Assembly: GCA_963814875.1 (NCBI GenBank)
Contig: CAWFFJ010000019.1
Span: 67,482 to 131,481, forward strand
Reading direction: 5' to 3'
Source of the DNA: an uncultured Acidobacteriota bacterium
Lineage (GTDB): Bacteria; Acidobacteriota; Thermoanaerobaculia; Thermoanaerobaculales; Sulfomarinibacteraceae
Length of the DNA stretch: 64,000 bases
Below the pieces are notes generated by a model. The model did not search any database and was not told where the DNA came from. It saw only the letters and a list, made by a program, of their open reading frames with translations. The translations under genes were made by a program, and so were the position numbers. Shown piece after piece: positions 43,693-58,797 of this stretch (the first letter of the stretch is position 1; every line of letters starts with the position of its first letter).

Positions 43693-44688
43693 ATGACGTA
43701 CAACCTCGTTGCCGGCCTGCTGTCAGCCGCAGACGCGCTGCAGCCGCAGCCCAAGAAGCCCTCGTTCTGGATGCCGCCGCAGGTGTCGACGTTCGCTGCC
43801 AACGTCGACTGGCTGTTCATGGTCATCCTCGGCATCTCAGTCTTCTTCTTCGTGCTCATCGTGGCGCTGATGATCGTCTTCGTCATCCGCTACCGCCACC
43901 GGGAAGGGCACGTCGCGGAGGCTTCGCCGACTCACAACCTCCCGCTCGAGGTGGTGTGGACAGCGATCCCGGTCGCCGTTGTGATGGTCATCTTCTATCT
44001 CGGTTTCACCAGCTACCTCGACATGGCGACGCCGCCGGCGAACGCCTACGAGGTCCGGGTCGAAGGCCAGAAGTGGAAGTGGACCTTCACCTACCCCAAC
44101 GGCTACGTGGACGAGAACCTCCACGTCCCGGTCGACCGCCCGATTCGACTCGTCATGTCATCCGCGGACGTCATCCACAGCCTCTACGTACCGGCCTTCC
44201 GGATCAAGCGCGACGTGGTGCCCGGTCGCTACTCGAAGGAGTGGTTCCAGGCCACCACCCCCGGCGAGTACGACGTGTTCTGTGCCGAGTACTGCGGCAC
44301 GGGGCACTCCGACATGCTCGCCCATGTCATCGTCCACCCGCCCGGTGAGTTCGAGCAGTGGCTGGAGAAGGCGTCCAACTTCCTCGACACCATGACGCCG
44401 GTCGAGGCCGGCCGCAAACTCTACCAGGTGCGCGGCTGCCAGCAGTGCCACTCCGTCGACGGCACCGCCAAGGTCGGCCCGTCCTTCAAGGGCATCTTCG
44501 GCGAGCCGCAGGCGCTCAGCAACGGCAGCAAGGTCACGGTCGACGAGAACTACATCCGCGAGTCGATCCTCGAGCCTCAGGCGAAGGTCGTGGCCGGCTT
44601 CGAACCGGTGATGCCAACCTACCAGGGCCGCCTCAAGGACCCCGAGATCGACGCGCTCATCCAGTACATCAAGTCGCTGGCGAAGTGA
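43693..44688 (+). CDS. ctaC: cytochrome c oxidase subunit II with fused C-terminal cytochrome c (caa3 type)
   Basis: Two TM helices, the CuA site (HSLYVPAF...[12 protein letters not shown]) and a C-terminal CQQCH heme-c domain. Confidence 0.92.
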
Positions 44689-44702
44689 CCGGGGGAGGAA
44701 GC

Positions 44703-46406
44703 ATGGCCACCGCGGACCCCGCCCTGACCGACAATCGGCTCCTTCATGAGAAAGAGTCCGGTGAGAGCTACCTGACCCACGGCAAGGGCATTCGGTCATG
44801 GCTGCTGACCCTCGACCACAAACGCATCGGGGTGATGTACCTGATGTTCATCCTCGCCTCCTTCCTGCTCGGCGGGATCTTCGCCCTCCTGGTGCGCACC
44901 GAGCTGCTCACCCCGGGGCGGACCATCATGGACGCCGACACCTACAACAAGATGTTCACCCTGCACGGCGCGGTGATGATCTTCCTGTTCATCATCCCCG
45001 GCATTCCGGCGGCGCTCGGCAACTTCGTGCTCCCGCTCATGCTCGGCGCCAAGGACGTCGCGCTGCCGCGGCTCAACCTGGCGAGCCTCTACTGCTGGAT
45101 CAGCGGAGCGATCCTCGCCCTGGTCTCGATCACGGTCGGAGCGATCGACACCGGTTGGACCTTCTACACGCCCTACTCGACGACCACCGGAACGGCGGTG
45201 ATCTGGATGGTGCTGGGGGTGTTCATCCTCGGCTTCAGCTCGATCTTCACCGGCCTCAACTTCATCGTGACGATCCACAAGATGCGGCCCGAAGGGATGA
45301 CCTGGTTCCGCATGCCGCTGCTGCTGTGGGGCCTGTACGCCACCGCGATCATCCAGGTCCTGGCGACGCCGGTGCTCGCGATCACGCTGCTGCTGCTGGT
45401 CGCCGAGCGGACGCTGGGGGTCGGGATCTTCGACCCCGCGCTGGGCGGCGATCCGGTGCTCTTCCAGCACTTCTTCTGGTTCTACTCACACCCCGCCGTG
45501 TACATCATGATCCTGCCCGCGATGGGTGTGATGAGCGAGGTCATCTCGACCTTCTCCCGCAAGCACATCTTCGGCTACCGCTTCATCGCCTACTCGTCGA
45601 TCGCGATCGCCATCCTCAGCTTCCTGGTGTGGGGTCACCACATGTTCGTCAGCGGCCAGTCGGGCCTCGCCAACATGATCTTCTCGGCCCTCACCTTCTC
45701 GGTCGCGATCCCGTCGGCGGTGAAGGTCTTCAACTGGATCGCGACCATGTACAAGGGCTCGATCCGTCTCGACGCACCGATGATCTACGCGCTCGCCTTC
45801 CTCTTCCTGTTCGCGATCGGCGGCCTCACGGGGCTCTTCCTCGGCGCGCTCGCCACCGACATCCACCTCCACGACACTTACTTCGTCGTCGCGCACTTCC
45901 ACTACGTGATGTTCGGCGGCACCGTGATCGCGTTTCTATCGGGATTGCACTACTGGTGGCCCAAGATGTTCGGGAAGATGTACTCCGAGCGCTGGGCGCG
46001 GGTGGCCGCGCTGCTCATCTTCGTCGGCTTCAACCTGACCTTCTTCACCCAGTTCGTCATGGGCAGCCACGGCATGCCGCGGCGCTACTACAACTACCTG
46101 CCCCAGTTCACCGTCTACCACCAGGCGTCCTCCGTCGGCTCCTACATCCTCGCTCTCGGCTTCGTGGTCATGGCCGTCTACCTCCTGCACTCGCTCGTGC
46201 GCGGCGAGCGCGCACCGCGCAACCCCTGGGGGGCCGCCACCCTGGAGTGGGAGACCAGCTCGCCGCCGCCGGCGCACAACTTCGACCACGACATGCTCGC
46301 CGGCGATCCCTATGACATCGACGCCCTGGTGTGGGACCCGACGCAAAAGGGCTATGTGCGGCGGGATCCCTTGTCAGTCCTGCTCCATCCCGCGGAGGCC
46401 CGCTGA
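44703..46406 (+). CDS. ctaD: cytochrome c oxidase subunit I
   Basis: ORF 44358..46406 trimmed to ATG 44703 ([20 protein letters not shown]...). Heme-copper oxidase motifs are present: [23 protein letters not shown] and VWGHHMF. Confidence 0.95.
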
Positions 46407-47263
46407 TGTCCGCCGAGGCCACCGCCCCCGACAGCCACCACGATCCGAACGTGGCCCACCACTTCGAGAACGCCGAGCAGCAGTTCGAGTCGGCCAACCT
46501 CGGCATGTGGATCTTCCTGGCCACCGAGATCCTGTTCTTCGGGGGATTGTTCTGCGCCTACACGGTGTACCGAGCCAACCACCCCGAGGTCTTCGTCTTC
46601 GCCCATGCTTTCCTCGACAAGAAGCTCGGCGCCCTCAACACGGCCGTCCTGATCTGCAGCTCGTTCACCATGGCCTGGGCGGTGCGCGCAGCCCAGCTCC
46701 GCCAGATCCGCATCCTCAAGCTGATGTTGTGGTTGACGATCCTGTTCGCGTTCGGATTCCTCGGCGTGAAGTACACCGAGTACAGCCACAAGTGGCACCA
46801 CGGTCTGCTGTGGGCCCGTCAGTACCACCCCGACGCCGAGATCCTCGCCGAGGTCGAGGGCGAGGCCGGCCAAAGTACAGCTTCCTCAGCCCAGGTGCCG
46901 TCAGAGCCCGCACCGCCGCCCCCGGCGGCGACGGCTCCTGCAGGCGATGCTGCGGACGTGTCGAAGATCCCGCCCGCCGCGGTCGGTCCGGCTGGTCTGG
47001 CCGTGCCCGGCGAGAAGGTCCACACCATCGTCCCCGAGCCAAAGAAGGCGCAGATCTTCTTCAGCATCTACTTCCTGATGACGGGGCTGCACGGCGTCCA
47101 CGTCGTGCTCGGCATCGGCGCCATGCTCTGGCTCCTGATGTGCGCTAGTCGGGGCGACTTCGCCGGCGGACATTTCACCCGGGTCCACATGGTCGGCCTC
47201 TATTGGCACCTGGTTGACCTCATCTGGATCTACCTGTTCCTGCTCCTGTACCTGATCCACTGA
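46406..47263 (+). CDS. ctaE: cytochrome c oxidase subunit III (with long Pro/Ala-rich loop insertion)
   Basis: ATG 46406 overlaps the ctaD stop (TGATG). Motifs: HHFENAEQQFESANLGMWIFLATEILFFGGLF and YFLMTGLHGVHVVLG...GLYWHLVDLIWIYLF. A low-complexity segment of ~75 aa sits at about 46826-47050. Confidence 0.9.
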   Translation: MSAEATAPDSHHDPNVAHHFENAEQQFESANLGMWIFLATEILFFGGLFCAYTVYRANHPEVFVFAHAFLDKKLGALNTAVLICSSFTMAWAVRAAQLRQIRILKLMLWLTILFAFGFLGVKYTEYSHKWHHGLLWARQYHPDAEILAEVEGEAGQSTASSAQVPSEPAPPPPAATAPAGDAADVSKIPPAAVGPAGLAVPGEKVHTIVPEPKKAQIFFSIYFLMTGLHGVHVVLGIGAMLWLLMCASRGDFAGGHFTRVHMVGLYWHLVDLIWIYLFLLLYLIH

Positions 47264-47273
47264 GGAGACGACG

Positions 47274-47606
47274 ATGAGCGAGCACACCCAGGTCGGCCAC
47301 GTTACCTCGATCCGCCTCCTGGTGACCGTCTGGATCGCCCTCCTTTTCGGCACCTGGCTGACGGTGAGCGCGACCTACTTCGACTTCGGATCGTGGAACA
47401 TCTGGATCGGCCTCGCCATCGCCACCGGCAAGGCTCTCCTGGTCGCGATCTACTTCATGCACCTACGCTGGGACAAACCGTTCAATGCCTTCGTCTTCAT
47501 GTCCGCGTTCCTGTTCCTGGCGCTGTTCATCGGCATCACGCTGATGGACACCGGCCACTACCAGGTCGAGCTCATCCCGGGCTACCAACCCGGCATGACG
47601 AACTGA
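47274..47606 (+). CDS. ctaF: cytochrome c oxidase subunit IV (bacterial CtaF-like)
   Basis: 110 aa with three TM helices. The family-typical motif is ATGKALLVAIYFMHLRWDK. Confidence 0.75.
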   Translation: MSEHTQVGHVTSIRLLVTVWIALLFGTWLTVSATYFDFGSWNIWIGLAIATGKALLVAIYFMHLRWDKPFNAFVFMSAFLFLALFIGITLMDTGHYQVELIPGYQPGMTN

Positions 47607-47612
47607 GCCAGC

Positions 47613-48200
47613 GTGGACGAGCCCCGCACTTTCTTCGGCTCTTCCGAGCCCGTGTCCGCCGAGGCGGGGCTGCTCGGGATGCGCCTCTTCCTCGCCGCGC
47701 TCGGCATGCTTTTCGCCGCGGCGGTGGTCGGCTTCCTGGTGGTCCGACTCCGTGCCCCCGCCTGGCCGCCGTCGGGCACCCCCGGGCTCCCGCTCCTGGG
47801 GCTGTGGTTCGCGACCGCGATCCTCGCCGCCCTCAGCTTCGCCCTGTCCCGCGCCGAGCGAGCCCTTGCGGCGGACCGCCAGCATCCGTTCCGCCGCGCC
47901 CTCGCGTCGGCGCTCGTACTGGCAGTCGTCTTCCTGGTCGCCCAGGCGGTCAACTGGTGGGAGATGATCGCCGCCGGCGCCGTCCCCCGGGCCAGCATGA
48001 TGGCGTTCGGTTTCTTCGTCCTCACCGCCCTCCATGCCCTCCACGTCATCGGCGGGCTGCCACCCCTCGCCGCGGTCGTGGTGCGGGCACGCGCCGGACG
48101 CTATGACGCCAGCCGCCGTCACGGCGTGCACTGGGTCGCGATGTACTGGCACTTCCTCGGCGTTGCCTGGCTTGCGCTCTTCGCCGTGCTGGCGCTCTGA
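47613..48200 (+). CDS. second heme-copper-oxidase subunit-III-like membrane protein
   Basis: GTG start, 195 aa. Subunit-III-like motifs are present: GMRLFLAALGMLFAA, FFVLTALHALHVIGG and VAMYWHFLGVAWLALF. Confidence 0.65.
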   Translation: MDEPRTFFGSSEPVSAEAGLLGMRLFLAALGMLFAAAVVGFLVVRLRAPAWPPSGTPGLPLLGLWFATAILAALSFALSRAERALAADRQHPFRRALASALVLAVVFLVAQAVNWWEMIAAGAVPRASMMAFGFFVLTALHALHVIGGLPPLAAVVVRARAGRYDASRRHGVHWVAMYWHFLGVAWLALFAVLAL

Positions 48201-50479: not shown

Positions 50480-50705
50480 GCTGCCTCCGTCGCCTTCGCG
50501 CGCCGCAGTACTGTAACCCGCGCCGCTGCCCGGCTTGAAGACCGTTGGACGAACCCGGACCCACCTCAGCATGGCCCTGCTGGTTTCTCGCGTTCAGCCG
50601 GGATGCCAATCCGGCTCGACCGGAGTAGAATTGGTCTCAGGATCGTTAGCACCGGCGACGGGCGGGCGTCGCCGCAATTCGGGGACCAGCCGTCGCGGAG
50701 GACTG

Positions 50706-51581
50706 ATGAGCCTACTGACCAAGTTCAACCTGGCGATGGTGGCGGTCTTCTCCCTGGCGATGGTGCCCGCTGGCTGGATCTCTCATGCTCTCTTGCAGAA
50801 GAGCGCCCGGACACAGGTCATTCAAAACGCGAGGATCATGATGGAAACCGCGATGGCGGTCCGCGGCTACACCATCTCCCAGGTCAAGCCGCTGCTGAAT
50901 GCACAGCTTGCGGAGAAGTTCCTCCCCCAGACAGTCCCGGCCTACTCCGCCACCGAAGTCTTCAACGCCCTGCGCAAGAGCCACCCCGAGTACGAGTACA
51001 AGGAGGCGACGCTCAATCCGTCGAATCCCCGCGACCGCACCACGGACTGGGAGGCCGACGTCGTGAACGAGTTTCGTCGCGATCCTGCACGGACCGAGTT
51101 CATCGGAGAGCGGCAGACGCCGCAGGGACGGTCCCTGTTCCTCAGCCACCCGATCCAAATCACGGATCCCAAGTGCCTGTCGTGCCACTCGACCCCGGAG
51201 GAGGCGCCGCCGTCGCTGATCCGGGAGTACGGCCCGAGCAACGGCTTCGGGTGGAAGCTCAACGAGATCATCGGCGCCCAGATCGTCTCGGTCCCGATGT
51301 CGGTCCCCGTCTCCATGGCGAACCAGGCGCTCGGCACGCTGCTCGCCACGCTGGCCGGGGTCTTCGTGGTCACGCTGCTGGTGCTCAATCTCCTGCTCCG
51401 GTTCGCGGTCACCGGCCCGCTGACGCGATTGGCCGCAATGGCAGACGAAGCGAGCCGGGGCAACCTGGCTGTTGCGAACTTCGAGGCCACGGGAACCGAC
51501 GAGGTCGCCGTTCTCGCGGGTTCATTCAATCGTATGAAGATCAGCCTCCAGAAGGCGATGGCGATGCTCGATGAAGGATGA
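50706..51581 (+). CDS. membrane sensor: DUF3365 (Tll0287-like c-heme PAS-like) domain plus HAMP, with no output domain
   Basis: ORF 50535..51581 trimmed to ATG 50706 with SD GCGGAGGA. The order is TM1, the DUF3365 pattern (NPSNPRDRTTDWEADVVNEFR...DPKCLSCHSTPEEAP...GAQIVSVPMS) with one CxxCH, TM2, then HAMP (VTGPLTRLAAMADEASRGNL...GTDEVAVLAGSFNRMKISL). The protein then stops. Confidence 0.8.
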   Translation: MSLLTKFNLAMVAVFSLAMVPAGWISHALLQKSARTQVIQNARIMMETAMAVRGYTISQVKPLLNAQLAEKFLPQTVPAYSATEVFNALRKSHPEYEYKEATLNPSNPRDRTTDWEADVVNEFRRDPARTEFIGERQTPQGRSLFLSHPIQITDPKCLSCHSTPEEAPPSLIREYGPSNGFGWKLNEIIGAQIVSVPMSVPVSMANQALGTLLATLAGVFVVTLLVLNLLLRFAVTGPLTRLAAMADEASRGNLAVANFEATGTDEVAVLAGSFNRMKISLQKAMAMLDEG

Positions 51582-53001
51582 TGCGCACACCCGTCCGGTC
51601 GCGGGAGAGGTCTTCGGCGGTTACGAGATTGTCGAGGAGCTGGGCCACGGCGGCATGGGCCTGGTCTTCCGCGCCCGACACCTGACGCTCGACCGAGAGG
51701 TCGCGCTCAAGGTGCTGGGCAGCGGTCTCTCCGCGGACGCAGGCTACCGCCAGCGCTTCCTCAAGGAGGCCCGGTCCGCGGCCCGGCTCAACCACCGCAA
51801 CATCGTCCAGATCTACGACTTCGGGCAGTGCGGCGAAACGGCCTACCTGGCGATGGAGTTCGTCCCAGGCCGATCCCTCGGCGACCTCTTGCGGGTGAGG
51901 AGCGCGTTTCCCGAGGCCCAAGCCATCGCACTCTGCCGCCAGGCCAGCACCGCACTCGGCTTCGCGCACACGGCCGGGGTCGTGCACCGGGACGTCAAGC
52001 CTGACAACCTGATTCTGAGAGACGACGGCGTGCTCAAGCTGGTCGACCTCGGGCTCGCCAAGAGCGTGTCCGATGATCAGGGGCTCACCCAGACCGGTGT
52101 CGTCGCCGGAACGCCCCACTACATCTCGCCGGAGCAGATCGAGGGCCGCAAGGACATCGACGGGAGAGCCGACGTCTACTCCCTCGGCGCGACCCTCTTC
52201 CACCTCGTCACCGGGCACACGCCCTTCGAGGGATCCTCGCCGATGGTGGTCATCGCCAAGCACCTCCATGACGACCCCAGGGACCCGAGGAGCTTCCAAC
52301 CGGCCCTGAGCGAGGCCCTCTGTGCGGTGATCCTGCGCATGATGGCGCGCAGCCGCGACGACCGCTACCCGGACATGGCCTCGGTCGACCTCGAGCTCGC
52401 CCGCCTTCAGAACGGGGAGGCTCCCGAGCAGGCGACCCTCGCGGGGCTCGAGACGACCGTCGTGGCGGCTGGCGTCGACCCGGCCGGGTCCACCCTTGCC
52501 GTCGACCCGCGATTCAACCCGGAAGAGCTGGCACGGGTCGAGGCCCACCTCGCCGAAGCGATCGGACCTCTCGCGAGGGTGTTGGTGAAGAGAACCTCTG
52601 CGATGACGTCCGATCTCGGCGAGCTGTGCGAGGCCGTGGCCCGACACATCCCTTCGCCACCAGTGCGCGAGAGGTTCCTGTCCACGGTCCTCAATCGAGC
52701 AGCGACCGGAAAGCCGCCGACCGCCACGAGAGACGGGAGCGCCGCCTCGAGGAGCGGCCCGTCGCAGGCCGAACCGCCGTCGACCGGTGAGGTCTCATCA
52801 GGTTCCATCGAGTGGGACCCGCAGTCTCTGGAGGCCCTGGAGAAACGGTTGGCAGCGTCGATTGGCCCGGTCGCCAGGGTCCTGGTGGCCAAGACGGTAC
52901 GACGGGCCTCGTCGTGGAGGGCCCTGGTCGGAACCCTCGCCGAAAACCTGTCCGACCCCGCCGACAGGGCGGCTTTTCAACGGGAGTTCGAGCAGCCGTG
53001 A
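51571..53001 (+). CDS. Hanks-type Ser/Thr protein kinase with two C-terminal ~55-aa repeats
   Basis: Kinase motifs are present: LGHGGMGLVFRA, ALKVL, HRDVKPDNL, DLGLA and GTPHYISPEQ. The start overlaps the upstream sensor gene by 11 nt. The C-terminal repeats are centred on IGPLARVLV and IGPVARVLV. Confidence 0.9.
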   Translation: MKDDAHTRPVAGEVFGGYEIVEELGHGGMGLVFRARHLTLDREVALKVLGSGLSADAGYRQRFLKEARSAARLNHRNIVQIYDFGQCGETAYLAMEFVPGRSLGDLLRVRSAFPEAQAIALCRQASTALGFAHTAGVVHRDVKPDNLILRDDGVLKLVDLGLAKSVSDDQGLTQTGVVAGTPHYISPEQIEGRKDIDGRADVYSLGATLFHLVTGHTPFEGSSPMVVIAKHLHDDPRDPRSFQPALSEALCAVILRMMARSRDDRYPDMASVDLELARLQNGEAPEQATLAGLETTVVAAGVDPAGSTLAVDPRFNPEELARVEAHLAEAIGPLARVLVKRTSAMTSDLGELCEAVARHIPSPPVRERFLSTVLNRAATGKPPTATRDGSAASRSGPSQAEPPSTGEVSSGSIEWDPQSLEALEKRLAASIGPVARVLVAKTVRRASSWRALVGTLAENLSDPADRAAFQREFEQP

Positions 53002-53029: not shown

Positions 53030-53995
53030 CTAACGGATCCCGACGGCCCGACGCACCCGGTCCATCAGCGGTGCGACGGTTTCCCGAGCTCGCTCGGCGC
53101 CCCGTGTGAGGACCCGGTCGACCTCACTCGGATCCGCGGAAAGCTCGGTGAAGCGTTGACGGGCGTCGCCGAAGGTGGCCAGGAAGTACTCGAAGAGCTT
53201 CTTCTTCATCTCGCCATAGCCTGTGCCGCCCTCACGGAAGGCACGCTCAACCCACGCGCGCTCGGGCTCGGGAGCGAACAGCTTGAGGAGCTGGTAGAGG
53301 GCGTTGTCCTGGGTCGGTTTGGGCTCCTCGACCGGTGTTGAGTCGGTGACGATCGACATGATCCGCTTCCGGGTCGCCTTCTCGGGGCCGAAGAGGTCGA
53401 TGGTGTTGCCGTAGGACTTCGACATCTTGCGCCCGTCGACACCCGGCACCACCGCAACCTCGTCAAGGATCAGCGGGTCCGGGAGGGTGAAGATCTCCTG
53501 TCCGTAGGTCGTGTGAAAGTTGGTCGCGATATCGCGGGTGACCTCGAGGTGCTGCTTCTGGTCCTTGCCGACCGGGACCAGGTCGGCATCGACGATCAGG
53601 ATGTCCGCCGCCATCAGCACGGGATACGCGAACAGGCCGTGGCTCGGCACCACTCCCTGGGCGACCTTGTCCTTGAACGAGTGGCAGCGCTGAAGCAGAC
53701 CCATCGAAGTTGCCGTGGACAGGTACCAGGCGAGCTCGGAGACCTCGGGCACGTCGGACTGCCGGTAGACCACAGAGCGTTTCGGGTCGAGGCCAAACGC
53801 AAGGAACCCGGTGGCGAGGTCCCGCACCAGGCTCCGCATCCGGTCCGCGTCATGGACAGTGGTCAGGGCGTGCAGGTCGGCGAGAAAGTAGAAGCACTGG
53901 TGTTCGGCCTGCAGGGCGACAAACTGCCGGATCGCGCCGAAGTAGTTGCCAATGTGGAGAATCCCCGAAGGCTGAACGCCGGACAGGACGCGCAT
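53030..53995 (-). CDS. trpS: tryptophan--tRNA ligase
   Basis: MRVLSGVQPSGILHIGNYFGAI (HIGH-type motif) and KMSKS (GRKMSKSYGN). 321 aa. SD GAGGAGG lies upstream. Confidence 0.95.
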   Translation of the reverse strand: MRVLSGVQPSGILHIGNYFGAIRQFVALQAEHQCFYFLADLHALTTVHDADRMRSLVRDLATGFLAFGLDPKRSVVYRQSDVPEVSELAWYLSTATSMGLLQRCHSFKDKVAQGVVPSHGLFAYPVLMAADILIVDADLVPVGKDQKQHLEVTRDIATNFHTTYGQEIFTLPDPLILDEVAVVPGVDGRKMSKSYGNTIDLFGPEKATRKRIMSIVTDSTPVEEPKPTQDNALYQLLKLFAPEPERAWVERAFREGGTGYGEMKKKLFEYFLATFGDARQRFTELSADPSEVDRVLTRGAERARETVAPLMDRVRRAVGIR

Positions 53996-54048
53996 CGCAC
54001 CCTCCTCGAAGGCGGGATCTTACACCATGCGGAAAGGCGGACGGAGGA

Positions 54049-54292
54049 AACCACAGAGGCACGGAGGCACAGAGAAACACAGAGCCGACGCCCACCCAGA
54101 AGACAAGGAGACCTGCTCCGGTTTGACGACGAATGGTGAGACGATGACTCGGAAGTGATTGACGTCACCATGAGATACGGAGAGAACCCGATGACGTGGT
54201 GAACGCCCCCACGTCTGGCGACTCACCTTCTCACGTCTTGCGGCGCGGGCTGAGGGCAGCGCCTGCACTGTCTCTCTGGGTCTCTGTGGTGA
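54049..54292. repeat. CACAGAG-type inverted-repeat element (copy 3, long, ~185-bp lower-GC interior)
   Basis: Left arm: aaccacagaggcacggaggcacagagaaacacagag (54049-54084). Right arm: ctgtctctctgggtctctgtggtg (54268-54292). The interior contains the palindrome tgacgtca and no convincing ORF. Confidence 0.55.
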
Positions 54293-54368
54293 AGACCACC
54301 CGCCGTACATGGATCGGGCCGACACCTTTGGTGCCGGCCCGCGGGACCTGCTCGAATGACTGGGCAGC

Positions 54369-54605
54369 TCAGTCTTCGCCGTCGTCCCCGATCGCCTCCA
54401 CCGGGCAGGACTCCAAGGCCTCCTGGCACTGGGCCTCTTCCTCGTCCGTCTCCGGTTGCTTGTAGACGTACGAGAAGCCCTCGTCCTCGTTGGCCATGAA
54501 GTTGTTGGGGGCAGTCGTCCGGCACACGTCGCAGTCAATACAGCTCGTGTCGACGTAGAACTTGCCGGAGACGTTGGTTTCAACCTTGTCGGTGGGGTCC
54601 GCCAT
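54369..54605 (-). CDS. small ferredoxin (single Fe-S cluster type)
   Basis: ORF 54369..54662 trimmed to ATG 54605, preceded by AGGAG. The sequence is MADPTDKVETNVSGKFYVDTSCIDCDVCRTTAPNNF...ALESCPVEAI, giving the CxxCxxC...CP pattern. The C-terminus is acidic. Confidence 0.8.
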   Translation of the reverse strand: MADPTDKVETNVSGKFYVDTSCIDCDVCRTTAPNNFMANEDEGFSYVYKQPETDEEEAQCQEALESCPVEAIGDDGED

Positions 54606-54698
54606 CGGATCGATCTCCTTTCGCCCGGTCGCCCGGGGTCGCGTCGGGGGTGATGCTAACACACGCTAGAAGCCTGTCAATTCTCACGAGCCGAGCCA

Positions 54699-55808
54699 TT
54701 ATCGAGCAGGAATCTCAAGTGGTCGCGGGATCGAATCGAGCCGGATTGTCTGCTGCTGGACGCCTGTTGCGGCTGCGCTGGTGGTGCGAGAGGACCACAC
54801 ACACTCCACGTCATAGGGCTTCGAGAACGATGGCAGGACAGTCGTCGGGTCGTTCGAGCGGTTGTCCACCAGGGAACCGTAGGCGACCATCGCCGGGACG
54901 ACCTTGGTCCCGGTCGTGGTGTAGCTGGCGATGGACACCTTGAGCGTGATATCGCTCACTCCGGTGAGCCCGAATCGGGTGGACAGCACCTGATTGTACT
55001 GCTCGTGCTGGAGCGGTGCCACGTAAAAGGAGAAGGACAGCGGCTTGCCATCCGCATCCTCGAGCTGGACCCCGTCCGGACCGTACGGATCGATCTGGAT
55101 CAGCAGAGAGGTCTGGGGATCGGAGGTGTTGAAGACACCGATATTGAAACGGAAGTTGTTATCCTCGGCGGCACCGGTAATGAGCTGGTACGAAAGGTCG
55201 GTGAACCCGGCATCGGCGACGTTGTACCAGGGCACCCCCGGGATGGTCTGACCGTAGGTGGCCGCCTTCTGGATGAACTGGCCTGTGTTGTCCGGGTCCG
55301 GCACCCACACCGTGGTGTCGTTGTACGTCCGCGACTGGACCACCACATTGCGATACTGGCGGTCACCACCCGCGTCGAGCGTACCCGCCTGGTACGCGAA
55401 GACCACCAACCCGCCGAGGTTGGCGCGCGAGCCGAACTCGTCGGACCAGTACTGGCCGACGATGTCGCGCAAGGTCACCGAACCGCCGGGCGGAATGTCG
55501 GCGAGGCTCGCATCGACGTGTCCCCAACCCTCGGAGTCCCGTCCGCCGAGACCAGAGGTCCGGTCGTCGAGAATCGTCGAGTTGTCGCCGGCGCCCGACG
55601 GCATGAAGTAGATCGCGACATCGACGGCATCCGTCGTCTCGACGTTGGCGATCGTCAGGTCAGTGCGCCACACGCTGCCCTCGACGCCGCTGTTATGCGC
55701 CGCCACCGGGACATAGACAAGATCCGAAGCCATGAAGGACGCCCATGCCGGCGCACCGGCGAGGAGCAGTACGGCCAACAGGCCGAGCCGCCCGCAGAAT
55801 CGAGCCAT
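54699..55808 (-). CDS. secreted hypothetical protein sharing the unassigned C-terminal domain of the nonaheme cytochrome
   Basis: ORF 54699..55880 trimmed to ATG 55808, preceded by GGAGG. It has a signal peptide (MARFCGRLGLLAVLLLAGAPAWA). The motifs VPVAAHNSGVEGSVWRTDL, RTYND...ATYGQTIPGVP, FRFNIGVFN and AYGSLVDNRSNDPTTVLP parallel those in 21085..23991. Confidence 0.65.
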   Translation of the reverse strand: MARFCGRLGLLAVLLLAGAPAWASFMASDLVYVPVAAHNSGVEGSVWRTDLTIANVETTDAVDVAIYFMPSGAGDNSTILDDRTSGLGGRDSEGWGHVDASLADIPPGGSVTLRDIVGQYWSDEFGSRANLGGLVVFAYQAGTLDAGGDRQYRNVVVQSRTYNDTTVWVPDPDNTGQFIQKAATYGQTIPGVPWYNVADAGFTDLSYQLITGAAEDNNFRFNIGVFNTSDPQTSLLIQIDPYGPDGVQLEDADGKPLSFSFYVAPLQHEQYNQVLSTRFGLTGVSDITLKVSIASYTTTGTKVVPAMVAYGSLVDNRSNDPTTVLPSFSKPYDVECVWSSRTTSAAATGVQQQTIRLDSIPRPLEIPAR

Positions 55809-55876
55809 GAGAACCTCCGCGATCCGCGGCAGGGTCACCGCGATAGACGCTGTCAACGGGAGGGACGCGCGGCCCC

Positions 55877-57295
55877 TCACCCGGTCATGTTGCCATCGCC
55901 GGCCGGGCCCGGCAAGACGATACGTGCTTCGAAGCCACCGGTCGCCAGATTCTCCAGCTCGAGCTCACCCCCGTGGGCGGTCACGATCCGGTCCGCGATC
56001 GCCAGCCCTAGCCCGGTCCCGCCGCGGCGGTTGGTGACGAAGGCTCTCCGCACCTGCCCGAGCTGGTCCTCCGGGATGCCGTTGCCGCGATCGCGAACCA
56101 AGAGCACGACCTGGTCGTTCTCACACGCTGCGGCCAGCTCGACGACGCGGCGCTCGGCGGGCTCCAACAGCGCGACCGCCTGGATCGAGTTCAGGGCGAG
56201 GTTGAGCAGCACCTGGCGGAGCTGGGCCGCGTCACCTTGGATCGCGATATCGGGAACATCCGGGGCGAGGCGAAGATGGGTAGCCATCGCCCGCGCTTCG
56301 CCGCGCAGAAACTCCGCAACCTCACGCAGAAACGGAACCAGTCGCACGGGCTCGAGATTGGGCTCGGTTGGCCGGGCATAGGTGAGGAAGTCGCTCACCA
56401 GTCGGGCCAGGCGGCTGACCTCCTGGCGCGTCGACGCCAGCGAGCCTGAGCTTTCGGACGGTCCGGCAGCCAAATCCTCTTCCAGCAGCTCGAGATTGAG
56501 GTTGATCGAGTTCAGGGGGTTCCGGATCTCATGGGCCAGGTTGGCCGCGAGGCTTCCGAGGGCTGCGAGCTCTTCGGCTTCGTGGCGCGCACCCTCGAGG
56601 CGGCGGTTGCGCTGGATCAGCAGCCAGACACATGCGAAGGCCACCAGCAGGGTCGACAAGGTCAGCACCGCAACGGTCACCGTCTGTCGGAGCAGCTCCG
56701 AGCGCAGCTGCTGCACGCGCGCGGCGAGCTTGACCTTGCTGACGTTGAGAACAACCTCGCCCACCTCGCCCGCCGGAACGGCGATCTGATAGCTGTGCTC
56801 GGTCTGGCGCACGTCCGCATCGGAGAGATCCCCGCGGAGCTCGAGCTCCGGGACCGTGCCGGGCGGAATGTCCTCCGTGCTCTGCAGGAACGACGTGAAG
56901 ACCACGTTGCCGTTGGCATCGGTCACTTCAACCGACTCGAGCACCTTCTTCTGTGCGAGGCCACCCAGCGTCCGGACCAGGGCCTCCTGGCGCTTGGACA
57001 TGACCTGGAGTAGATCGGTGCCGCCGCCACTCTTGAGCTGCTCCGCGAACCGCTCCGCGTCCTCGCGCCCGGTGAGCAGAACGTCCTCGAGGTAGCGCCT
57101 CGACAGCGACGAGGCGATCAGGTGGCCAAACAGGAAGATGATGCCGAGCACGAGCACGGCGAACGCCGACGCCGCCAGGGCGAGCTGGCGGGACAACGGG
57201 CTCGGGCCGGACTTCCTTCGCCGCGTGACGCCCTCGCGCCGCATCGGTGCGTCGGTGCGCTGATCGAGTCGCAACGCGGCCGGGGCCTCAGACAT
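55877..57295 (-). CDS. sensor histidine kinase (two TM helices, extracytoplasmic loop domain, HisKA plus HATPase)
   Basis: H-box LGSLAANLAHEIRNPLNSI. N/G boxes LLNLALNSIQA, VRDRGNGIPEDQL and GGTGLGLAIADRIV. The start is uncertain (ATG 57295 or GTG 57346). No response regulator is adjacent. Confidence 0.85.
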   Translation of the reverse strand: MSEAPAALRLDQRTDAPMRREGVTRRRKSGPSPLSRQLALAASAFAVLVLGIIFLFGHLIASSLSRRYLEDVLLTGREDAERFAEQLKSGGGTDLLQVMSKRQEALVRTLGGLAQKKVLESVEVTDANGNVVFTSFLQSTEDIPPGTVPELELRGDLSDADVRQTEHSYQIAVPAGEVGEVVLNVSKVKLAARVQQLRSELLRQTVTVAVLTLSTLLVAFACVWLLIQRNRRLEGARHEAEELAALGSLAANLAHEIRNPLNSINLNLELLEEDLAAGPSESSGSLASTRQEVSRLARLVSDFLTYARPTEPNLEPVRLVPFLREVAEFLRGEARAMATHLRLAPDVPDIAIQGDAAQLRQVLLNLALNSIQAVALLEPAERRVVELAAACENDQVVLLVRDRGNGIPEDQLGQVRRAFVTNRRGGTGLGLAIADRIVTAHGGELELENLATGGFEARIVLPGPAGDGNMTG

Positions 57296-57645
57296 CGGCT
57301 CGCCGATCACTGCGCTCGCGCTGCTCCCCACCTCTCCACCAGCCACGCAAGTGCGAACCCGCAGGACCCGTCCCGTCGATGTGGCGACAGCGCGAGAATG
57401 CCAAAACGGCAGCCATAGACTGCCCGAAGAGGCTCGAGGCGGTCACAGCCTCAGTCCAAGCGGGCTCGCCTTCACGTCTCACCATCTCTCTACCGTGGGC
57501 ACCGTCCTGCCAGCGATCGCGGGCCCACTCGCAACTCGGCGCCCACAGCGTGTGCTCGCTGACGACCCGGCCCCGCGTTGTTGGGCTTCCCTGTGGTAAC
57601 AGGCATCTCGGCTCCCTCGCGACCTCACGCGGTGTGACATGCAGG

Positions 57646-58797
57646 CTAGATGCCACACCCGGTTCGGAGGTCTTTCGCCCGGTCGGTACGCTCCCAGGTA
57701 AAGTCCGGGTCGTTGCGTCCGAAGTGACCGTAGGCTGCGGTCTTGCGGTAGATTGGGCGGAGCAGGTCGAGGGCCTGGATGATCGCGCGCGGCGTGAGCG
57801 GGAAGACCTCACGGACCACGCGGGTGATCCGCTCGTCCGGAACCTGTCCGGTGCCGAAGGTGTCGACCATGATGGAGACCGGGTCCGCGACACCGATCGC
57901 ATAGGCCAGTTGGACCTCGGCCCGGCTCGCGAGACCGGCAGCGACGATGTTCTTTGCGACGTAACGGGCCATGTACGACGCGGAGCGGTCGACCTTGCTG
58001 GGGTCCTTTCCGGAAAAGGCCCCCCCGCCGTGCGAGCCGACGCCGCCGTACGTGTCGACGATGATCTTGCGTCCGGTCAGACCGCAGTCGCCTTGAGGCC
58101 CGCCAATGACGAAGCGCCCGGTCGGGTTGATGAGAACCTTGGTGTCGTCGTCCATCATCGCCAACGGAAGGACCGGAGCAATGACCTTCTCGCGCACCTC
58201 CATCCGCAGCTCGCGGATCGACACCGAGTCCGAGTGCTGACACGAGACCACCACCGCCTCGATGCGGTGCGGTGCGCCGTTCCGGTACTCGACCGACACC
58301 TGGCTCTTGCCGTCCGGCCGAAGCCACTCAATCTCGTCCGTCCTCCGGGCCTCGGCAAGCCGCATCGCGAGCTTGTGTGCGAGCATGATCGGCATCGGCA
58401 TCAGCTCGGGCGTCTCGTCGCAGGCGAATCCGAACATCAGCCCTTGGTCGCCGGCGCCGCCGGTGTCGACCCCCTGCGCGATGTCCGGCGACTGCGGATC
58501 GATCGACGAAATCACTGCACAGGTCTCGTAGTCGAAGCCGAACTTCGCCCTGGTGTAGCCGATGTCCCGGATGGTCTCGCGTACGAGTCGAGGAAAATCG
58601 ACGTAGACGGTGGTTGAGATCTCGCCCGCGATAAAGGCGAGCCCGGTGGTCACCAATGTTTCGCAGGCGACTCGGCCGTCGGGATCTTCGCTGAGCACCG
58701 CATCCAGGATCGCGTCCGAGATCTGGTCCGCGATCTTGTCGGGGTGCCCTTCCGTGACCGACTCCGAAGAGAAAACATGCATACCGTTAGGAGCCAT
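57646..58797 (-). CDS. metK: S-adenosylmethionine synthetase
   Basis: [35 protein letters not shown] and [16 protein letters not shown]. 383 aa. SD GGAGG lies upstream. Confidence 0.95.

Follow-up and report, generated by a model that had tools for sequence, protein, structure and literature searches.

An acidobacterial gene pair of the CHH/STPK type: a Cache_heme receptor ending in HAMP and a soluble Hanks-type kinase with two DUF8082 repeats

The DUF3365 domain has been redefined as a Cache fold, sCache_heme, into which a CXXCH element is inserted, and a Pseudomonas azotoformans protein composed of a transmembrane (TM) helix, Cache_heme, a second TM helix and HAMP was reported to bind nitric oxide (NO) with slow dissociation (10.64898/2026.02.01.703092). 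The k_off of NO from the P. azotoformans heme is 6e-4 s-1 (10.64898/2026.02.01.703092; 10.64898/2026.05.25.727664). The NO-binding class is Cluster 2, which lacks an axial Cys, and stand-alone Cys/His-ligated DUF3365 relatives act as redox proteins (10.64898/2026.02.01.703092). A two-protein system built on such a receptor, CHH-STPK, was preprinted on 28 May 2026 (Deshpande, Xu, Dunleavy, Zhulin and Crane; bioRxiv 10.64898/2026.05.25.727664). Here, we describe a gene pair of this type in a 64,000-nucleotide (nt) stretch of DNA, hereafter the window, from an uncultured Acidobacteriota bacterium (Thermoanaerobaculia, Sulfomarinibacteraceae; NCBI GenBank assembly GCA_963814875.1, contig CAWFFJ010000019.1, positions 67,482 to 131,481). 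The pair consists of a sensor gene (window positions 50706..51581) and a kinase gene (51571..53001), both on the + strand.

In the Pseudomonas system, genes of CHH receptors with an uncoupled HAMP adjoin the gene of a PknB-like kinase without PASTA repeats, and this kinase carries two C-terminal four-helix bundles with linkers of ~30 residues (10.64898/2026.05.25.727664). A 3.47 Å cryo-EM map showed a heterotrimer in which the two bundles clamp two HAMP subunits via the helices IGPLARFLVRKSLN and IGPIARIVVSRALR (10.64898/2026.05.25.727664). The affinity between HAMP and kinase is nanomolar and ATP-independent, and Thr256 of HAMP is phosphorylated faster when NO is bound (10.64898/2026.05.25.727664). 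The taxa stated for the system are gamma- and betaproteobacteria, and a PP2C gene is an optional, less frequent part of the cluster (10.64898/2026.05.25.727664). Its structure entries are 35YV and 35YX (10.64898/2026.05.25.727664); the set of PDB entries searched in this study, which does not include these two, contained no CHH or DUF8082 match.

The window locus is a member of this published CHH/STPK system from the Acidobacteriota (Thermoanaerobaculia), and its architecture is not new. An initial annotation of the window, made from the letters alone, had called the pair an architecture not known to be described, a statement that has been out of date since the CHH-STPK preprint (10.64898/2026.05.25.727664). 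It is very likely that the two genes form a self-contained operon encoding a split transmembrane receptor kinase of the CHH/STPK type, which is tethered through HAMP and controlled by a heme ligand.

Every sequence-level defining feature of the CHH/STPK system is present in the window pair. The sensor has a Cache_heme domain (PF11845) with the motif CLSCH, two TM helices around this domain according to hydropathy and AlphaFold2 (AF2) prediction, and a HAMP that comes last, with no fused output. The adjacent gene of the same operon encodes a PknB-like kinase devoid of TM helices and PASTA repeats. At the C-terminus of this kinase lies a dyad with HAMP-recognition helices, IGPLARVLVKRTSA and IGPVARVLVAKTVR, which match IGPLARFLVRKSLN and IGPIARIVVSRALR of the preprint. 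The likeness to the P. azotoformans pair thus covers a receptor of ~290 amino acids (aa) with TM, heme-c Cache, TM and terminal HAMP, a sensor without an axial Cys, an adjacent TM-less PknB-like kinase, and two C-terminal four-helix bundles with ~30-residue linkers and IGPxAR-type helices. On the other hand, the window pair belongs to the Acidobacteriota (Thermoanaerobaculia), has no nearby PP2C gene and shows an 11-nt gene overlap. Its HAMP connector starts with Arg and not with the probable phospho-acceptor Thr, and it is known from sequence alone.

The sensor open reading frame (ORF) starts at ATG 50706 and stops at TGA 51579-51581; its product is a CHH receptor of 291 aa with TM1, a periplasmic sCache_heme domain, TM2 and a cytoplasmic HAMP, without an output domain. 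Two TM helices are predicted to flank the sensor domain: TM1 at about residues 7-30 (50724..50795, +), by hydropathy and helical in the AF2 model, and TM2 at about residues 207-233 (51324..51404, +), with a 19-residue Kyte-Doolittle maximum of 2.54 and located within the model helix 199-250. Between them lies the sCache_heme (Tll0287-like/DUF3365) domain, residues 31-197 (50796..51296, +; Pfam PF11845, E 3.3e-40), and TM2 is followed by HAMP, residues 234-282 (51405..51551, +; Pfam PF00672, E 2e-08). Only 9 residues are left after the Pfam-defined HAMP before the polypeptide ends. The order TM, DUF3365/Tll0287-like domain with a single CLSCH, TM, HAMP and an early stop, as given in the initial annotation, was therefore confirmed by Pfam and hydropathy. 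The c-type heme attachment motif CLSCH (C157, C160, H161) occupies residues 157-161 (51174..51188, +), and it holds the only cysteines of the whole 291-aa sequence. With a single CxxCH motif and no second Cys, the window sensor lacks the Cys/His ligation of the redox-type Tll0287/P. putida class. C157, L158, C160 and H161 were unchanged in 61/61 aligned sensor homologs, and column counts over 83 HAMP sequences including the window revealed that A246, S250, G252, D265, L270, S280 and A284 are invariant.

Since the exact sensor sequence has no database record, the 99%-identical protein P0001 was used in its place. The AF2 model of the sensor contains a long N-terminal helix, an alpha/beta core, a TM2-AS1 helix (199-250), a connector (251-265) and AS2 (266-290). 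Its fold resembles Tll0287 (5b82), GSU0935 (3b42) and the Af1503 HAMP, the last of which is the best PDB match in both sequence and fold for sensor residues 227-290.

The second gene (51571..53001, +) encodes a soluble Hanks-type Ser/Thr kinase of 476 aa with two C-terminal DUF8082 repeats. Its PknB-like catalytic domain (residues 18-265; 51622..52365, +; Pfam Pkinase E 1.5e-48) contains GHGGMG (GxGxxG), VALK47, HRD139-141, DLG159-161, SPE186-188 and a PknB-like activation loop LTQTG. The best solved relative is PknB of M. tuberculosis (1mru, E 2.5e-63), and the NCBIfam model PknB_PASTA_kin matched over the catalytic part only (residues 17-290). No hydrophobic segment was found in the full ORF, the 19-residue Kyte-Doolittle maximum being 1.14, and neither a TM helix nor the extracellular PASTA repeats of the PknB/PASTA kinase family were detected by Pfam, NCBIfam or hydropathy. 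The proposal that this ORF is a TM-less eukaryotic-like Ser/Thr kinase was thus upheld.

The C-terminal repeats of the kinase are the key to the coupling between sensor and kinase. The C-terminus consists of two copies of a ~56-residue unit, each with an IGPxARVLV helix, and precomputed hits assigned the unit to Pfam PF26309 (DUF8082); a Pfam scan without the PF26309 model gave noise only for this region. Repeat 1 covers residues 317-378 (52519..52704, +) and includes IGPLARVLVKRTSA at residues 331-344 (52561-52602, +), and repeat 2 covers residues 417-474 (52819..52992, +) and includes IGPVARVLVAKTVR at residues 431-444 (52861-52902, +). Both repeats, which were delimited by a repeat hidden Markov model (HMM) and AF2, are predicted four-helix bundles. 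The AF2 model of the kinase (76 homologs, mean pLDDT 83.7) shows a confident catalytic domain, a disordered linker (289-312), the first bundle, a second disordered linker (380-411) and the second bundle, with 24 linker residues before the first bundle and 32 between the bundles. The helices of repeat 1 were modeled at 317-331, 335-345, 349-357 and 363-378 with pLDDT ~90. No other ORF in the window bears the repeat. When the 56-aa repeat was used as a profile query, 12 short fragments were the only hits, and these gave no information about other architectures.

The kinase start codon overlaps the 3' end of the sensor gene by 11 nt (51571..51581, +), in agreement with the earlier placement of the kinase ATG at 51571 and the sensor stop at 51579-51581 and with the ORF coordinates. 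This overlap suggests translational coupling of the two subunits. Relative to the sensor, the kinase is in frame +1. Such an arrangement could also be taken as the trace of a single DUF3365-HAMP-Pkinase receptor kinase whose reading frame was interrupted at 51560-51590, by a frameshift or through an assembly error; this was the second reading offered by the initial annotation. At least one cluster representative (P0206) is a direct Cache_heme-TM-Pkinase fusion, which may be counted in favor of a split; however, HAMP is absent from P0206 and its kinase is of a different subtype. P0206 has 588 aa, with Cache_heme, TM, a linker of ~65 low-complexity residues and Pkinase. It may represent a rare single-chain heme-c receptor Ser/Thr kinase, or possibly a gene-call artefact.

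The comparison with related loci argues strongly against such a split. The junction is identical in the window and in the related contigs L001 (89% identical), L081 (97% identical) and L082, and no indel occurs around 51560-51590 among the three independent assemblies of the window, L001 and L081. In all 82 related loci (83 sequences with the window) the sensor stops just past HAMP, 0-4 residues beyond the aligned HAMP end in these 82 loci, and the kinase-like frame starts between 18 nt before and 140 nt after the sensor stop, with all three relative frames being used. Most relatives have 14-40 nt between the two genes, and in one locus (L077) the kinase gene even lies upstream of the sensor. 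A continuous reading frame across the junction was found in 0/82 loci, and the genes overlap or are separate but never fused. The 120 nearest sensor homolog clusters (63-99% identity) are almost all 291 aa long, and the nearest 150 of 1.84 billion 50%-identity representatives, retrieved by an index-free search, are mostly ~290 aa, down to 36% identity. With a conserved 291-aa stub, three frames, variable spacing and no indel at the junction, the split-receptor explanation is refuted, and we assign it a negligible probability.

Two defects in individual records were noticed at these loci. L081 (ENA ERZ25039500 contig_10601) has one extra A at the position matching window 52847, which shifts the kinase frame before the second repeat and leads to a 487-aa product; the window version of the kinase is the intact one, as the window, L001, P0283 and P0284 all have 476 aa. 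In L084 the sensor gene is broken, and only a 94-aa HAMP fragment was called.

The two-protein interpretation, in which a HAMP stub engages a Hanks-type kinase, is supported by the strict conservation of the gene pair as well as by the HAMP-docking repeat dyad. The class of the partner gene was assigned by six-frame HMMs in the 82 related loci; picking the longest ORF was dropped owing to spurious high-GC ORFs in L006, L028 and L070. Contigs were too short for an assessment of the partner in 8 loci. In 74/74 assessable loci, from at least five phyla, a repeat-bearing partner adjoins the HAMP stub on the same strand, and this adjacency is retained even in the three loci whose partner has no kinase domain. 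A kinase lies directly downstream of the sensor in ~74/80 loci. Reciprocally, the CHH gene was directly upstream in 4/4 contigs that were retrieved with the kinase as the seed, with unrelated flanking genes each time. A genome scan revealed the pair in Acidobacteriota, Krumholzibacteria, Burkholderiales, Verrucomicrobiia and Fibrobacteraceae, and it is also present on megaplasmids of cultured Paraburkholderia, Caballeronia, Skermanella and Rhodovulum. A search of plasmids for receptor homologs hit these four genera and cyanobacteria.

It could be argued that the two genes are merely adjacent and functionally unrelated. Considering that the pair recurs in every assessable related locus, chance adjacency is implausible; the co-occurrence across phyla, the four reciprocal look-ups, the overlap of the window genes and the HAMP-docking repeats in the partner all speak against it, and this explanation has hardly any chance of being correct. 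The flanking genes differ from locus to locus, and the pair is therefore best regarded as a self-contained two-gene unit.

Most partners, including that of the window, have the ordinary form with a kinase and two DUF8082 repeats, which was found in 52 loci. Another 12 loci (L016, L019, L022, L031, L032, L036, L037, L039, L040, L041, L042 and L044) encode a kinase with one repeat. Most of them are labelled Thermoanaerobaculia or Acidobacteriota, L039, whose repeat match is short and weak, being from Krumholzibacteria; the ORFs recovered were ~390-420 aa. If a single-repeat kinase docks as in Pseudomonas, there would be one kinase per HAMP subunit, and the complex would be 2:2 and not 2:1. In 7 loci (L043, L050, L066, L067, L075, L078 and L080), from Methyloversatilis, Rhodoferax/Albidiferax and Ramlibacter, composite partners of ~700-810 aa downstream of the sensor combine a Pkinase of a different subtype (GGFGxTY) with a class III cyclase-like domain and a pair of DUF8082 repeats. 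The remaining 3 partners, all proteobacterial (L033 6890-8005, L061 1339-2406 and L074 6887-8026), lack a kinase; in them, two DUF8082 repeats come after a divergent class III cyclase-like domain (Pfam Guanylate_cyc). The cyclase-like assignment is based on scores of 23-37 bits versus a Pfam cutoff of 21.9.

PF26309 is carried by all 120 nearest kinase clusters, and the repeats are retained in Proteobacteria, where kinase identity to the window falls to 30-40%. The repeat and not the enzyme is thus the constant part of the partner, as kinase identity drops or a cyclase replaces the kinase while the repeats are always kept. One hypothesis is that DUF8082 is a portable HAMP-docking adaptor through which output-less Cache_heme-HAMP receptors recruit different enzymes in at least five bacterial phyla, and we consider the chances of this generalization to be about even. 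A cyanobacterial CHH homolog with 40% identity is encoded on plasmid pP880101 of Rippkaea orientalis PCC 8801 (L088, 47395-48303), and no DUF8082-bearing ORF was found within 4 kb upstream and ~2.6 kb downstream, where the record ends. Possibly this receptor is an orphan, or the gene of its partner lies at another site.

Based on these features and on the Pseudomonas homolog, a mechanism can be proposed. The sensor would be a dimeric inner-membrane protein whose periplasmic Cache-fold domain holds one covalent c-type heme, with thioethers to C157 and C160 and H161 as the proximal ligand, and its cytoplasmic end would be a bare HAMP four-helix bundle. Through its two C-terminal DUF8082 bundles the PknB-like kinase would stay permanently attached to the HAMP dimer, and each bundle would offer its IGPxARVLV helix to one HAMP subunit, resulting in one kinase per receptor dimer. 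By analogy with P. azotoformans, it is most likely that the kinase docks physically on HAMP, and the stoichiometry would be 2:1. A diatomic ligand on the heme, most probably NO, would alter the conformation of HAMP across the membrane, and this change would in turn alter phosphorylation by the flexibly linked catalytic domain. Ligand-dependent phosphorylation would be expected from the P. azotoformans data, and its targets would be HAMP itself, as in Pseudomonas, and possibly other substrates.

It is possible that the same two-protein module responds to a signal other than NO, such as the redox state of the heme, O2 or superoxide, CO or another periplasmic heme ligand. The authors of the Pseudomonas study allow another heme ligand as the real signal (10.64898/2026.05.25.727664), and the P. 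azotoformans Cache_heme domain undergoes rapid autoxidation with production of superoxide (10.64898/2026.02.01.703092). In the window, the module lies beside a cytochrome c oxidase cluster with SCO1, and the host is a Thermoanaerobaculia metagenome-assembled genome (MAG). However, phosphorylation was similar for the oxidised and reduced P. azotoformans receptor, and NO alone enhanced it (10.64898/2026.05.25.727664). In addition, an axial Cys is missing from the heme pocket of the window sensor, a trait shared with the NO-binding class, and the oxidase neighborhood is not conserved, since the flanking genes differ in every locus. A non-NO signal is therefore a minority possibility, although a substantial one.

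Another possibility is that the sensor mainly serves as an anchor or substrate of the kinase, with information flowing from kinase to receptor or with localisation as the only function, and that the ligand state of the heme exerts no control. The receptor is the only demonstrated substrate, the affinity is indifferent to ATP/Mn2+, the complex forms with the reduced and the NO-bound receptor alike, and direct modulation of the catalytic domain was deemed unlikely by the authors (10.64898/2026.05.25.727664). On the other hand, the rate at which the cytoplasmic HAMP is phosphorylated changes when NO binds in the periplasm (10.64898/2026.05.25.727664), and signal transmission appears to matter because strong conservation is seen at both the HAMP core residues and the heme site. 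An anchor role without ligand control is thus improbable, and a HAMP-tethered receptor kinase under the control of a heme ligand remains our preferred explanation.

Besides the other heme ligand allowed for in the preprint, several points weigh against this explanation. The first connector residue in the sensor model is R251; the closest relatives have the same Arg, and the column is Thr in 33/83 homologs, with the motif VSTG. The R251 column may correspond to Thr256 of Pseudomonas, and HAMP phosphorylation at this site may be absent in the window. If the two positions do correspond, the invariant S250, the connector residues T262/T264 or a third-party substrate would have to provide the alternative phosphosite. 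The catalytic domain of the window kinase is only 43% identical to that of the P. azotoformans CHH-associated kinase (preprint Fig. S2). No PP2C phosphatase gene was found within 8 kb on either side of the module, as examined on contig L081 (99% identical in that comparison), nor was PP2C among the conserved neighbors in 79 loci. Docking, ligand and phosphorylation are all carried over by analogy from a gammaproteobacterial homolog, and the source for the CHH-STPK system is a preprint that is not peer-reviewed.

Several other known systems share parts of this architecture. Af1503 of Archaeoglobus fulgidus, the archetypal HAMP structure, is likewise a TM receptor that ends in HAMP without an output domain. 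Af1503 is not known to have a heme-c sensor domain, a DUF8082 partner or an associated kinase. The Geobacter methyl-accepting chemotaxis proteins GSU0582 and GSU0935, as well as DUF3365-HAMP proteins with histidine kinase (HK) or GGDEF outputs, have the same periplasmic heme-c Cache and TM topology as the window sensor. In these fused sensors the output is covalently attached, whereas in the window it is a separate protein that would be recruited non-covalently; no output domain was found in the window sensor polypeptide. Sensor relatives at 37-50% identity are fused to GAF-HK, hybrid HK, GGDEF or SpoIIE. Other domain combinations were observed as well, including Cache_heme-HAMP-TPR-pentapeptide repeats (P0229), a TIR domain N-terminal to Cache_heme (P0200) and Cache_heme-SpoIIE(PP2C)-HATPase_c_2 (P0204).

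H-NOX and NosP, which work with histidine kinases, follow a similar two-protein gas-sensing logic with the heme sensor encoded beside the kinase. These sensors are cytoplasmic, bind heme b and have histidine kinases or c-di-GMP enzymes as partners (10.64898/2026.05.25.727664), whereas the window pair would combine periplasmic heme c, a transmembrane signal borne by HAMP and a Hanks-type kinase partner. PknB/Stk1 PASTA kinases resemble the window kinase in the catalytic domain, the TQT activation loop and the VALK/HRD motifs. In contrast to them, the window kinase has no TM helix and no PASTA repeats, and sensing would be outsourced to a separate membrane protein.

In the window, the genes on either side of the module are a TauE-family gene in divergent orientation and, in convergent orientation, a tryptophanyl-tRNA synthetase gene. 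A sigma-70-like promoter match (ATGCCA-17-TAGAAT; 50603..50631, +) was identified by consensus match only in the divergent intergenic region of 133 nt that precedes the sensor gene, with one site versus 0.1 expected in shuffles. No intrinsic-terminator match was found after the kinase gene. Further upstream, at 44358-48200, is an aa3-type cytochrome c oxidase cluster with COX1 and COX3 homologs, and L081 contains SCO1 and COX2 further upstream; between this cluster and the module are a fused dehydroquinase/shikimate dehydrogenase gene and then the TauE-family gene. Downstream, positions 53030-58797 encode tryptophanyl-tRNA synthetase, a small ferredoxin, a HisKA/HATPase histidine kinase and S-adenosylmethionine synthetase. 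None of the window neighbors was conserved next to the module in other loci, and a conserved third gene was looked for in acidobacterial loci and not found.

Two further genes occur near the module in betaproteobacterial loci, one weakly FecR-like and the other a divergent cyclase-FHA gene, and neither has a match in the window. The latter encodes a Guanylate_cyc-FHA protein of ~297 aa. This gene is transcribed divergently and lies on the upstream side of the sensor at a distance of ~1 kb (L079 3996-4892, - strand); homologs occur in L038, L046, L052, L053, L057, L058, L064, L065 and L071. Together with L079 these are 10 proteobacterial loci, mostly Burkholderiales/betaproteobacterial MAGs. 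As the FHA domain binds phospho-threonine, the Guanylate_cyc-FHA protein can be regarded as a candidate target downstream of the kinase. The FecR-like gene, of ~300-320 aa, immediately precedes the sensor gene on the same strand in 20 loci (e.g. L057 5076-5981 and L087 3042-3998) and overlaps the sensor by 4 nt in Paraburkholderia pBN1. Its product has a signal-peptide-like N-terminus and a FecR score of 22.1 bits, under the cutoff of 24.

An uncoupled-HAMP receptor that holds a soluble Hanks-type kinase was shown experimentally only months ago, and in one Pseudomonas species. Three aspects of our results apparently go beyond the text of the preprint. The first is the spread of the system outside Proteobacteria, to Acidobacteriota, Krumholzibacteria, Verrucomicrobiia and Fibrobacteraceae, and the second is the existence of kinase-less cyclase-like partners, kinase-cyclase composites and single-repeat kinases; such adaptor-type partner diversity was not found in the main text or one supplement of 10.64898/2026.05.25.727664. 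The third is the range of outputs fused to close sensor relatives, including the HAMP-less kinase fusion P0206. These aspects come from 80 loci and should be regarded as leads and not as a census. The window and the 80 related loci show that the module is not confined to Proteobacteria, that it is a compact cassette whose internal adjacency is kept while its surroundings change, and that enzymes of more than one kind carry the docking repeat. The practical gain for the window is a confident annotation of two genes that public records label only as "DUF3365 domain-containing protein" and "serine/threonine protein kinase". If the HAMP of this acidobacterium does lack the phospho-Thr of Pseudomonas, this would point to substrates of the kinase other than HAMP.

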